A stretch of DNA of 11,546 bases from an uncultured Thermus sp. (GTDB lineage: Bacteria; Deinococcota; Deinococci; Deinococcales; Thermaceae): NCBI GenBank assembly GCA_947085095.1, contig CAMTVD010000025.1:1-11546 (forward strand), given 5' to 3'. This document shows, one piece after another, positions 8,413-11,546 of the stretch. Below the pieces are notes generated by a model that saw only the letters and a list, made by a program, of their open reading frames with translations, did not search any database and had not been told where the DNA came from. Position 1 is the stretch's first letter, and each line of letters opens with the position of its first letter. The translations under genes were made by a program, and so were the position numbers.

Positions 8413-10518
8413 GTGGGCAAGGCGCATCCCTCCGAAGAGACCCTGCTTTCCTCCCTGAACGAGGCCCAGCGCCAGGCGGTCTTGCACTTTGAGGGGCCGG
8501 CCCTGGTGGTGGCGGGGGCGGGGAGCGGCAAGACCCGCACCGTGGTCCACCGGGTGGCCTACCTCATTGCACAGAGGGGAGTTTTCCCCTCGGAGATCCT
8601 GGCGGTCACCTTCACCAACAAGGCGGCCGAGGAGATGAGGGAGCGCCTGAAGGCCATGGTGCCGGGAGGGGGGGAGCTTTGGGTCTCCACCTTTCACGCC
8701 GCCGCTCTGCGCATCCTCAGGGTATACGGGGAGCGGGTGGGCCTGAAGCCCGGTTTTGTGGTCTACGATGAGGACGACCAGACCGCTCTTTTGAAGGAAA
8801 TATTCAAGGAGCTCGGCCTTTCCGCCAAACCTGCTCCCATCAAGAGCCTCCTGGACCGGGCCAAGAACCAAGGGGTGGCTCCGGAGAGCCTCCTCGCCGA
8901 CCTGCCCGAGTTCTACGCCGGACTTCCCCGGGGTAGGCTTCAGGACGTCCTCCTTCGCTACGGGGAGGCCCTTCGGTCCCAAGGGGCCTTGGACTTTGGG
9001 GACATTCTCCTTTACGCCCTAAGGCTTCTTGAGGGGGACGGGGAGGTCCTCAAGCGGGTCAGGAAGCGGGCCCGTTTCATCCACGTGGATGAGTACCAGG
9101 ACACGAGCCCGGTGCAGTACCACCTCACCCGGCTTCTGGCGGGGGAGGAGGCCAACCTCATGGCGGTGGGGGACCCGGACCAGGGCATCTACTCCTTCCG
9201 GGCCGCGGACATCCGGAACATCCTGGACTTCACCCGGGACTATCCCGGGGCCAAGGTGTACCGCCTCGAGGACAACTACCGTTCCACCGAGGCCATCCTC
9301 CGCTTCGCCAACGCCGTCATCGTCAAGAACGCCCTGCGCCTGGAGAAGAACCTGCGCCCGGTGAAGCGGGGTGGGGAGCCCGTGCGCCTCTATAGGGCCG
9401 GGGACGCCCGGGAGGAGGCCCGCTTCGTGGCCGAGGAGATCGGGAGACTTGGCCCCCCCTTTGACCGGGTGGCCGTCCTCTACCGCACCAACGCGCAAAG
9501 CCGCCTCCTGGAGCAGGCCTTGGCCCAGCGGGGGGTCCCGGTCCGGGTGGTGGGGGGGGTTGGCTTCTTTGAACGGGCCGAGGTGAAGGACCTCCTGGCC
9601 TACGCCCGCTTGAGCCTGAACCCCTTGGATGCCGTGAGCCTGAAGCGGGTCCTGAACACCCCGCCCAGGGGGATCGGCCCAGCTACTCTGGAGAAAATAC
9701 AGGCTATTGCCCAGGAGCGAGGCCTGCCCCTCTTTGAGGCCCTGGAGGCGGGGGCGGCGGTTTTGCCCCGCCCCGAGCCCGTGCGCCACTTCCTGGCCCT
9801 CATGGCCGAGCTCATGGACCTGGCCTTTGGTCCGGCGGAGGCCTTCTTCCGCCACCTTTTGGAGGCCACCGACTACCTCACCTACCTGAAGGAGGCCTAT
9901 CCCGAGGACGCCGAGGACCGCCTGGAGAACGTGGAGGAGCTCCTTAGGGCCGCCAGGGAGGCGGAAAGCCTCGTGGACTTCCTGGACAAGGTGGCCCTCA
10001 CCGCCCGGGCGGAGGAGCCCGGTGAGGCGGAGGGGCGGGTCTCCCTCATGACCCTGCACAACGCCAAGGGGCTGGAGTTCCCCGTGGTCTTCCTGGTGGG
10101 GGTGGAGGAGGGGCTTTTGCCCCACCGCTCCTCCCTGTCCACCCTCGAGGGCCTGGAAGAGGAGCGCCGCCTCTTCTATGTGGGGGTTACCCGGGCCCAA
10201 GATAGGCTTTACCTCTCCTACGCCCAGGAGCGGGAGATCTACGGCCGCCCGGAGCCCGTGCGCCCAAGCCGCTTCCTGGAGGAGGTGGAGGAAGATCTTT
10301 ACGAGGTCTACGACCCCCACCGTTCCTCTCCCAAGAAGCCCCTTCCGCCTCCTCACCGGGCCCCTGCTGGGGCTTTCAAGGGCGGGGAAAGGGTGGTCCA
10401 TCCCCGGTTTGGCCTGGGGACGGTAGTGGCGGCGGCGGGGGACGAGGTGACCGTGCACTTTGAGGGGGTGGGGCTGAAGCGGCTCTCCCTCAAGTACGCG
10501 GACCTGAGGCCCGCGTAG
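8413..10518 (+). CDS. uvrD: ATP-dependent DNA helicase UvrD/PcrA (SF1A)
   Basis: 701 aa: Q motif LNEAQ, AGAGSGKT, TFTNKAA, DEYQD, VGDPDQ.IY.FR, NYRST, YRTNAQ, TLHNAKGLEF, EERRLFYVGVTRA, plus the C-terminal Tudor-like domain (V.HP.FG.GTV...V.F). Confidence 0.97.
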   Translation: MGKAHPSEETLLSSLNEAQRQAVLHFEGPALVVAGAGSGKTRTVVHRVAYLIAQRGVFPSEILAVTFTNKAAEEMRERLKAMVPGGGELWVSTFHAAALRILRVYGERVGLKPGFVVYDEDDQTALLKEIFKELGLSAKPAPIKSLLDRAKNQGVAPESLLADLPEFYAGLPRGRLQDVLLRYGEALRSQGALDFGDILLYALRLLEGDGEVLKRVRKRARFIHVDEYQDTSPVQYHLTRLLAGEEANLMAVGDPDQGIYSFRAADIRNILDFTRDYPGAKVYRLEDNYRSTEAILRFANAVIVKNALRLEKNLRPVKRGGEPVRLYRAGDAREEARFVAEEIGRLGPPFDRVAVLYRTNAQSRLLEQALAQRGVPVRVVGGVGFFERAEVKDLLAYARLSLNPLDAVSLKRVLNTPPRGIGPATLEKIQAIAQERGLPLFEALEAGAAVLPRPEPVRHFLALMAELMDLAFGPAEAFFRHLLEATDYLTYLKEAYPEDAEDRLENVEELLRAAREAESLVDFLDKVALTARAEEPGEAEGRVSLMTLHNAKGLEFPVVFLVGVEEGLLPHRSSLSTLEGLEEERRLFYVGVTRAQDRLYLSYAQEREIYGRPEPVRPSRFLEEVEEDLYEVYDPHRSSPKKPLPPPHRAPAGAFKGGERVVHPRFGLGTVVAAAGDEVTVHFEGVGLKRLSLKYADLRPA

Positions 10519-10528
10519 GAGGACGGCG

Positions 10529-11242
10529 ATGTGGCCCCCTTACCACAAGACAAGGCCCCTCCTGGTGAGCTACCAGGGGGCTTCCCCCCTCTACGACCGC
10601 CTCCTGGCCGAAGTGGCCGCCGCCCGCCTGCCCCTTTTCCCCTACCCGGTGGAGATCAAGGACCCATGGCAGGCCCTTCCCTGCCTGGCGCCTTTGGACC
10701 TGGCTGGCGTGGTTCTGGAGGAGGCCCTGCCCCCTCCTGAGGGGGTGCGCCTCGAGCCCGAGGCGGAGCGGGCGGGTCTGGTGGACCTGGTGGTGCCGGG
10801 GACCCTGGGGCCCGTGGGGCACTACACGGAGGGGCTCGCTTTGGACAGGCTCCTTTCCGCCTTCTTCCCGGGGTCCAAGGCCCTTTGGCTTGGGCCCTTG
10901 CGCCCTGGCCTCGCCCCCTTTCTCCGGGCCTTGGGCCAGGTCTCCGTGGTGGCCAGAAGTTTCGCTGAGGGGGACAGCTTTCTGGCCCGCTTGCCCGAGA
11001 GGGCCCGGGGGCACGTGGCCCTGAGGCCGGAAGATGTGCGTGCCCTGGCCCTCAAGGTGGATCTCCTCGTCTTTGCCGGGGGCAGACTTCCCCTGGATGC
11101 CCTCCAACCCTTCCACACCCTCTTGGCCTTGGCCCCGGTGGAGCGGGGGGTGAAGGAGCGGGTCCTCGAGGTCCATGGCCCCGAAACCCTCCTGGACTTC
11201 CGGGTCAAGGCGGTGCTGGAGGCGCTAGGCTACGCCTTGTAA
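10529..11242 (+). CDS. Hypothetical protein with degenerate shikimate dehydrogenase (AroE)-like architecture
   Basis: SD GGAGG at 10518-10522 and normal codon style. LEPEAERAGLVDLV...GHYTE, KALWLG and VSVVARS align by eye to AroE A..IGAVNT...G.NTD, ALVLGAGG and V.NRT. Confidence 0.65.
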   Translation: MWPPYHKTRPLLVSYQGASPLYDRLLAEVAAARLPLFPYPVEIKDPWQALPCLAPLDLAGVVLEEALPPPEGVRLEPEAERAGLVDLVVPGTLGPVGHYTEGLALDRLLSAFFPGSKALWLGPLRPGLAPFLRALGQVSVVARSFAEGDSFLARLPERARGHVALRPEDVRALALKVDLLVFAGGRLPLDALQPFHTLLALAPVERGVKERVLEVHGPETLLDFRVKAVLEALGYAL

Positions 11243-11274
11243 AAAAACATCCCCACGTGCGTGGGGACTACTTT
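11241..11274 (-). terminator. Intrinsic terminator-like structure formed by the repeat hairpin plus T7 tract (possibly bidirectional)
   Basis: Minus strand: GC-rich stem followed by TG and TTTTTTT (A7 at 11241-11247 on +). Plus strand: the same stem followed by CTACTTT, just after the stop of the uvrD-linked gene. Confidence 0.55.
11248..11271 (-). CRISPR. Solitary, 3'-truncated type I-E CRISPR repeat (no array)
   Basis: The reverse complement reads GTAGTCCCCACGCACGTGGGGATG, the first 24 nt of the 29-nt Thermus I-E repeat as I recall it (..GGGGATGGACCG). It has a 7-bp stem TCCCCAC/GTGGGGA and a 4-nt loop. The final GACCG is replaced by TTTTT, and there is no second copy ~61 nt away. Confidence 0.82.
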
Positions 11275-11382
11275 AAGGCGGGGGTCAGGTTTCCCTCCCC
11301 GCGGCGGGCCTCTTCTCGGGCCAGGGTGTTTTTCCTTGGCCCGGACATGCCCGCGGTGACGAGCTTATCCCCCATAAGGGTC
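11272..11382 (-). promoter_or_regulatory. Possible CRISPR leader-like region
   Basis: About 110 non-coding nt directly 5' of the repeat on the minus strand, with A-runs (GGAAAAAC, TTAAA abutting the repeat) and a -10-like TAAGCT at 11367-11362. Positional inference only. Confidence 0.4.
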
Positions 11383-11546
11383 TAGTCTCTTCAGGAACCA
11401 GCTAAGGCTAAGTGCCAACCCCTTATCATGTCAACATGGCAGCCCCTCTTCAGATCCAGCTGACCCCTGAGGAGGACCGGCTCCTGCTGGAACTCTCCCT
11501 GGACCCGAAGACCCACAAGAAAACCCGCCTCTGGGCCGCCATGGTC
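11383..11546 (+). mobile_element. Left end of a probable IS630-family insertion sequence (truncated by the window edge)
   Basis: Transposase-like ORF from 11436. CTAG at 11382-11385 provides the TA target typical of IS630. The exact end cannot be confirmed without the right inverted repeat. Confidence 0.55.
11436..11546 (+). CDS. Probable IS630-family transposase, N-terminal 37 aa
   Basis: Hand translation MAAPLQIQLTPEEDRLLLELSLDPKTHKKTRLWAAMV fits the I.LT.EE...L..L.......R.RA pattern that precedes the HTH in IS630 transposases. A -10 TATCAT (11424-11429) lies 6 nt before the ATG. Confidence 0.7.
   Translation, partial: MAAPLQIQLTPEEDRLLLELSLDPKTHKKTRLWAAMV

Follow-up and report, generated by a model that had tools for sequence, protein, structure and literature searches.

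In type I-E CRISPR systems, the repeat downstream of a spacer provides the 3´ handle of the CRISPR RNA (crRNA), which is held by Cas6e, and the upstream repeat provides the 5´ handle, as described in PMC4499155. The same study, by Semenova et al. (2015), placed a U-tract behind an I-E repeat hairpin in an engineered construct, and this stopped transcription both in vitro and in vivo in E. coli; part of the crRNA-like transcripts that resulted entered Cascade (PMC4499155). Across subtypes, terminal repeats are reported to carry significantly more mutations than internal ones (PMC12839519), and for Thermus the consensus of the I-E repeat is given as GTAGTCCCCACRCRYGTGGGGATGGMCSD (PMC6452258, Table 1). 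Here we describe a single repeat unit in an 11,546-nucleotide stretch of DNA from an uncultured Thermus sp. (contig CAMTVD010000025.1, called the window below). The unit is very probably the leader-distal terminal repeat of a chromosomal I-E array, which was cut from the body of the array by an insert and by a contig break at an insertion sequence (IS). The window is the entire contig C25 of genome G000, a metagenome bin of 2.08 Mb in 41 contigs that is 93% complete, and the contig ends inside a multicopy IS.

The unit is located on the minus strand at positions 11248 to 11271, where the sequence (11271 to 11248) reads GTAGTCCCCACGCACGTGGGGATG and continues with TTTTTTTA. It corresponds to the first 24 of the 29 nucleotides (nt) of a trailer I-E repeat with the hairpin intact, as indicated by its identity to the repeats of its own genome, its fold and its orthologous position. 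The predicted fold has an 8-bp stem and a 4-nt loop (centroid energy -13.9 kcal/mol), as is typical of an I-E 3´ handle, in which a GC-rich stem of at least 6 bp carries a 4-nt loop. A first-pass annotation of this DNA had reported a single 24-nt hairpin on the minus strand and had assigned it to the type I-E repeats of Thermus, and both statements proved correct. When the 2.08-Mb genome was searched with the 24-mer, allowing up to five substitutions, it was found in 11 places, eight of them exact and three degenerate, the latter all on contig C13. Seven of the exact copies belong to two mini-arrays, one on C13 (11773-11918) with three repeats and one on C29 (772-979) with four, and the eighth is the window unit. 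The repeats of both arrays extend with GGACC(G/A) to 29 nt, and the window unit is identical in 24 of 24 nt to the first 24 nt of these repeats.

Positions 1-24 of the unit also fit the consensus GTAGTCCCCACRCRYGTGGGGATGGMCSD (PMC6452258, Table 1) and are identical to those of the locus 1 repeat of Thermus sp. CCB_US3_UF1 (PMC4599208, Table 6). Positions 25-29 are TTTTT where the consensus has GMCSD; here the unit does not fit and differs from the Thermus I-E repeats listed in both tables. A fit over positions 1-24 with a misfit over positions 25-29 is what a terminal repeat, and not an internal repeat, is expected to show. The hairpin exists and is of the I-E type, at a level of agreement far above chance. 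We also considered that the hairpin had arisen by chance or belonged to a terminator without relation to CRISPR; the 24/24 identity and the orthologous arrays described below rule this out. The same 24-mer search revealed no second repeat inside the window, and no cas family was detected among the 12 large window open reading frames (ORFs) that were scanned. An Rfam search of positions 10900-11546 in E-value mode returned two matches at chance level (E 0.5 and 0.6) and no CRISPR or small RNA family.

Comparison with related genomes showed that such a unit sits at the end of an array. The unit lies next to a conserved hypothetical gene on the plus strand (10529-11242, 237 aa, taken from the ORF list), which we call gene X; the A7 run that borders the hairpin begins within its stop codon TAA (11240-11242), and the array end is convergent on the gene. 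The gene X product matched no Pfam or NCBIfam family, and orthologs were detected with tblastn in 29 of 29 relatives' loci. A 501-nt query covering the end of gene X and the unit had matches in all 32 Thermus genomes, and the match ran through the repeat only in G005 (85% identity, query positions 1-373) and G020 (70%). In G005, the nearest relative, the TAA of the gene X ortholog is followed by AAAAAC and then directly by the hairpin, which is the last of 10 I-E repeats; beyond these come a leader and a dsbB-like gene. In G020, a three-repeat array occupies the equivalent slot, and the loci of the other 27 relatives lack a hairpin of this kind. In 17 of the 29 relatives' loci, the dsbB-like gene lies beside gene X in convergent orientation, with only 3-27 nt between the two 3´ ends in 14 of the 17. 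In the others, the gap measures 108 nt (locus L028), 317 nt (G020) and 720 nt (G005), the last two being occupied by the arrays. The pattern of the hairpin followed by T5 was found at one place in G000 and at one in G005, and the other 30 genomes did not contain it.

Array ends of this type were also present in metagenome contigs, which were scanned with a pattern that demanded the hairpin, A(C/T)G and T7A. A first pattern with the exact junction of G000 had no match, and a looser one identified 14 contigs, all of a type like that of G005. Each of the 14 ends its I-E array (3-33 repeats within the sequence available) with this unit, beyond which lies an end of gene X like that of G005; in 13 of them, the distance to the preceding full repeat upstream is 61-62 nt, as expected of a normal spacer. 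These 14 contigs reveal the nature of the unit and do not bear on the conservation of T7, since T7 was required by the pattern. The idea of the first-pass annotation that a trailer repeat had degenerated at its 3´ end was thereby borne out, the last positions (25-29) being replaced by Ts and the array ends in the relatives being orthologous.

The rest of the array is located on a different contig. While gene X is on C25, the dsbB-like gene (PF02600, NF002849), the leader and four repeats of G000 are on C29. There the order is dsbB-like gene, leader, four full repeats with three spacers of 32-33 nt, about 50 nt to which no identity could be assigned, an ORF of 68 aa, a PIN ORF and an IS end. 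The leader is 75% identical over 119 nt to that of G005 (E 2e-16), and the repeats are spaced at 61-62 nt. The 68-aa ORF upstream of the PIN gene had no family match; its position and a paralogous gene pair on contig C15 suggest that it may encode an RHH-like antitoxin. The PIN piece itself was recognised by PIN_3 (E 7.6e-20) and TIGR00305 (E 1.6e-17). Searching a phage collection with the C29 spacers and with the stretch after repeat 4 yielded only a chance match to a Caulobacter phage (E 0.9). A repeated element makes up the last 140 nt of C29, and another the last 136 nt of the window. Spacers of about 32 nt and a leader, the marks of array membership, are absent from the window and are found once C29 is joined to it through the IS. 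The description of the repeat as solitary therefore holds for the window, in which there is only one repeat, and not for the genome. The last interval of the array in G000 is abnormal, comprising about 770 nt and the IS.

The window end (11411-11546, plus strand) is the left end of a multicopy IS630-type IS; the transposase ORF starts at 11436 and the contig terminates inside it. An end of the C25 type was found at 15 contig ends and one of the C29 type at another 15, so that together they make up 30 of the 82 contig ends of the assembly. The IS is preceded by TA at 11409-11410, which we assign as target-site duplication on the basis of the other ends: of 15 ends each of type A and type B, 14 in either type have TA before them (the exceptions being C2_R and C24_L), among them those of C25 and C29. 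A full copy in G031, 91% identical, contains ORFs with HTH_32/HTH_33/HTH_23 and DDE_3, a domain set which, together with the TA duplication, we take to be that of an IS630-type element. Read depth over the IS rises up to about 60-fold in the metagenome runs, and the assembly broke at the IS because of its roughly 15 copies.

Across this break, a single gene appears to continue. The PIN frame on C29 runs ...LVTGDKDHLLSLKKVNGTRVV and then enters the IS; the minus-strand frame leaving the IS on C25 reads SLSWFLKRLDPYGG and then stops. In a paralogous, shortened PIN gene on C15, ...LVTGDKDHLLSLGKVGKTRII is directly followed by SLSAFLKQISPYGR and a stop codon. Comparison with this paralog assigns positions 11365-11410 of the minus strand to the 3´ end of the PIN toxin gene, with its last 15 codons and the stop at 11367-11365. 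Judged from the translations of C29, C25 and C15, whose comparison is not a scored alignment, the two PIN pieces are the halves of one gene that was split by one IS copy with TA duplication. The split PIN frame and the synteny of gene X and the dsbB-like gene together place C29 and C25 next to each other. Insertion of IS elements into or beside CRISPR arrays is a general phenomenon. The locus described here resembles such cases in that an IS630-type element with TA duplication interrupts it, and differs in that the IS sits in the inserted PIN gene and not in a repeat or spacer. A lone repeat at the end of a contig, with a flank that resembles a leader, can be the tail of an ordinary array after an IS-induced assembly break, and orthologous loci and other contigs settle such cases quickly.

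The 5´ side of the unit had been described in the first-pass annotation as about 110 nt of non-coding, leader-like DNA. This flank is 137 nt long (11272-11408), reaches the TA duplication at 11409-11410, after which the IS begins at 11411, and by sequence comparison consists of the PIN 3´ end and the remnant of an ATPase gene, and not of a leader. Blastn and translations identified positions 11293-11375 (minus strand) as what is left, in decayed form, of the 5´ part of a gene for a packaging ATPase of the Thermus IN93/P23-77/Tsatsa type; this remnant overlaps the PIN 3´ end, as is also the case on C15. An ATG at 11375-11373 opens a 35-codon frame that resembles the N-terminus of the P-loop ATPase encoded on C15; the Walker A motif is corrupted, and the frame is closed by a TAG inside the repeat (11270-11268). 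Nucleotides 11293-11364 are 74% identical over 72 nt to C15 27996-28067, and nucleotides 11293-11363 are 76% identical over 71 nt to the gene annotated as 'terminase large subunit' in Tsatsa; the C15 ATPase in turn shares 80-92% identity with the packaging ATPases encoded by Tsatsa, P23-77 and IN93.

Between this remnant and the repeat are 21 nt (11272-11292, minus strand) that lie outside the blastn alignments to C15 and Tsatsa and for which no match was found. Possibly, they are the 3´ remainder of the original last spacer. If the ATPase homology continued through them, this would fit a recombination between spacer and protospacer; compared by eye with C15, about 10 of 24 positions agree, which is near chance. 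The RHH-PIN insert was also compared with the 31 other Thermus genomes, where the best match had 66% identity (G026) and none was located inside an array. The C15 counterpart lies at about 27550-28650 in a provirus-like region (L048, C15:20000-33102) and consists of an RHH-like ORF, the shortened PIN ORF and the packaging ATPase; this ATPase is 91.5% identical to that of Tsatsa and 80-84% to those of IN93 and P23-77, and C15 also ends in the IS.

From these data, the following arrangement is very probable. In one Thermus lineage, the slot between the convergent gene X and dsbB-like gene is occupied by an array, which in G000 reads, in minus-strand direction, dsbB-like gene, leader, repeats 1-4, insert, 21 nt, terminal repeat, T7 and gene X stop. 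The insert of about 770 nt carries the small antitoxin-like ORF, the PIN toxin gene and the decayed 5´ piece of the Thermus-virus packaging ATPase gene. Later, the 3´ end of the PIN gene was hit by the IS630-type element, and the assembly break at the IS left the terminal repeat alone at the end of C25. The terminal repeat retains the 21 nt of the crRNA 3´ handle, with the hairpin and the cut site at its base, and the part that would serve as 5´ handle for a following crRNA is gone, with U7 in its place.

Such a unit is a feature of a known kind, namely the degenerate terminal repeat of an ordinary array, with mobile DNA at the trailer end. As in the terminal repeats described in PMC12839519, the mutations affect the 3´ end of the last repeat and leave the hairpin and the 5´ part intact; what differs is the clean T7, which here replaces the 3´ part and abuts the stop codon of a convergent gene, and the last 'spacer', where about 770 nt with genes and an IS stand in place of 32 nt. 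Since the downstream repeat contributes only the 3´ handle, a terminal repeat needs just the hairpin, and its 3´ part, having no spacer to serve, can vary freely, which agrees with the excess of mutations that terminal repeats show in general (PMC12839519).

The T7 tract (11241-11247 on the minus strand, A7 on the plus strand) is located directly 3´ of the hairpin and replaces the last 5 nt of the repeat. Unit and tract together have the anatomy of an intrinsic terminator, that is, a GC-rich hairpin directly followed by a U-tract, and a terminator scan flagged minus-strand positions 11268-11249 with 8 pairs (5 of them G-C), a 4-nt loop and the tail GTTTTTTTAC. We infer that the hairpin and U7 act as an intrinsic terminator on the array strand, just as any present-day CRISPR activity of this array would have to be inferred. 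The terminator would end the precursor crRNA and, in G000, also the transcript of the co-oriented RHH-PIN genes, and it would shield the convergent gene X from antisense read-through. In addition, the last crRNA could obtain its 3´ end from it independently of Cas6e. With the engineered terminator of Semenova et al. (PMC4499155) it shares the repeat hairpin followed by a U-tract. That terminator was a designed E. coli construct, whereas the one presented here is the natural end of a Thermus array at which termination is predicted. If this interpretation is true, the array end is a natural counterpart of the engineered repeat-hairpin terminator.

Several observations speak against parts of this interpretation. 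No read or contig bridges C29 and C25: in four DNA runs, all from one study that may be the source of this DNA, all contigs stop inside the IS at 11435, and among the contigs of these runs that aligned to 10500-11546 no form free of the IS was seen. A look-up for positions 10800-11410 returned these DNA runs and no RNA run. With 15 copies of the IS, a different join is formally possible, and since G000 is a metagenome bin, C25 and C29 could stem from co-existing strains. Among the three representative genomes with an array in the slot, two have the T7 and G020 is without it. The terminator scan detected three sites in 10400-11546 compared to 1.4 +/- 1.6 in shuffled sequence, so that the count alone is not significant. 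The loop of the terminal hairpin is GCAC in G000, as in its internal repeats; in G005 it is ACGC, as in G020 and different from the internal repeats of G005, and terminal loops vary among the 14 metagenome array ends as well. A strict one-to-one orthology of the terminal repeats would thus require a step of recombination or conversion between repeats. Recombination from repeat to repeat, which also deletes spacers, would explain both the loop pattern and the short array.

A lone repeat can be explained in other ways, two of which had been put forward in the first-pass annotation. In a collapsed array, recombination between the first and the last repeat would have removed the spacers and left a leader with one trailer repeat, which would be a latent acquisition site. 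The window does contain a single repeat, and the genome has a comparable locus on C13 (71811-71834, plus strand), where a degenerate repeat follows a leader-like end. However, the leader orthologous to that of G005 is located on C29, together with four full repeats that are separated from the unit by the inserted genes and the IS, whereas the 137-nt flank, made up of the PIN 3´ end and the ATPase remnant, shows no similarity to the C29 leader (best match 16 nt, E 0.33); moreover, the unit is without the last 5 nt of the repeat. Nor does a latent acquisition site agree with the data, as there is no leader at the unit and neither an I-E cas1 nor I-E effector genes were found in the assembly. Its sole Cas1 gene (C7 22187-22976, minus strand) is split across two frames, which cover Pfam model positions 1-72 and 98-282, and its best NCBIfam models are not those of I-E; it is either a frameshifted pseudogene or the product of an assembly error. 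A collapsed array is thus highly improbable. The other proposal was a free-standing small RNA, similar to Racr or to regulatory crRNA-like RNAs, that binds Cas6e or Cascade in trans. Racr are RNA anti-CRISPRs that consist of solitary repeat units with a promoter of their own, typically on a mobile element; the window unit is like them in that a single repeat-like hairpin occurs, within a short piece of DNA, apart from any recognisable array. Its hairpin and the cut site at the base of the stem are intact, and T7 could end a short transcript. Against this, no promoter-like site was found on either strand in 10400-11546, no Rfam family matched, and the unit is the orthologous end of ordinary arrays. 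It is chromosomal and the end of a real array, and no virus or plasmid backbone is present apart from the adjoining decayed fragment. Cas6e, Cas7e and Cse1, to which such an RNA would bind, were likewise not found, which counts for less in a bin that is 93% complete. We give very little credence to a trans-acting RNA at this site.

A more serious alternative to a terminal repeat with a working terminator is that the unit is an inert remnant, the terminal repeat of a dead array in a strain that has lost its I-E system, with termination at T7 being incidental. Indeed, Cas6e, Cas7e and Cse1 (PF08798, PF09344 and PF09481) had no match in G000 with the T. thermophilus control being positive, and the arrays of G000 are tiny, with 3 and 4 repeats compared to up to 33 in the related metagenome contigs. 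The array is also disrupted by the insert and the IS, and degenerate and inverted repeat debris is found elsewhere in the genome. On the other hand, the hairpin and T7 are kept in both G005 and G000 although the neighbouring gene is only 85% identical, and the unit has preserved every sequence feature of an intrinsic terminator. The bin might also simply lack the cas genes: of the 31 other Thermus genomes, 19 carry Cas6e, G005 among them, and the absence of cas contigs from a 93%-complete bin is a real possibility. We consider an inert remnant a real but less likely possibility.

If the array ends in a built-in terminator, the slot upstream of it might be a tolerated and recurrent landing place for foreign cassettes, which would be transcribed with the array and ended by the repeat. 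We regard this as unlikely, although two cassettes of different content have been observed in the last slot, namely RHH-PIN with the truncated ATPase gene in G000 and a small-ORF cassette with 49% GC in metagenome contig L069. In the latter, 474 nt precede the terminal repeat, and the last 'spacer' of about 440 nt has a GC content of 49% in a locus with 62% GC and contains a small ORF in array direction. The first approximately 150 nt of this insert are also present in an odd 'spacer' of about 190 nt at slot -2 in two further contigs, L068 and L073. Among the arrays examined, all inserts that carry genes or measure about 190 nt are located in the last two intervals. A scan of L068, L069 and L073 with the Rfam gathering thresholds yielded no match. 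Of minor interest is that a toxin-antitoxin and virus fragment is found within the trailer end of a CRISPR array, and that a related population has a different insert in the same slot.

Further repeat-like sequences were observed on C13. At about 11940-12040, beside the three-repeat array, a perfectly palindromic chimeric repeat, in which the 3´ half is mirrored around the loop, and a repeat in inverted orientation are 32 nt apart, suggesting an inversion junction that was formed at a repeat hairpin. The degenerate I-E repeat at 71811-71834 (plus strand, 4/24 mismatches) is located after the leader-like stretch ...CGCCGTCCTGGTCATGC and before a convergent gene end, and qualifies better than the window unit as a candidate for an array that has truly collapsed. 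Together with the tiny arrays, such repeat debris fits a decaying, orphaned I-E repertoire. Ahead of another degenerate repeat (71478-71533, minus strand, two mismatches) are 33 nt with 94% identity to C15 27466-27498 in the provirus-like region, and this looks like a lone spacer against the C15 element or a recombination scar.

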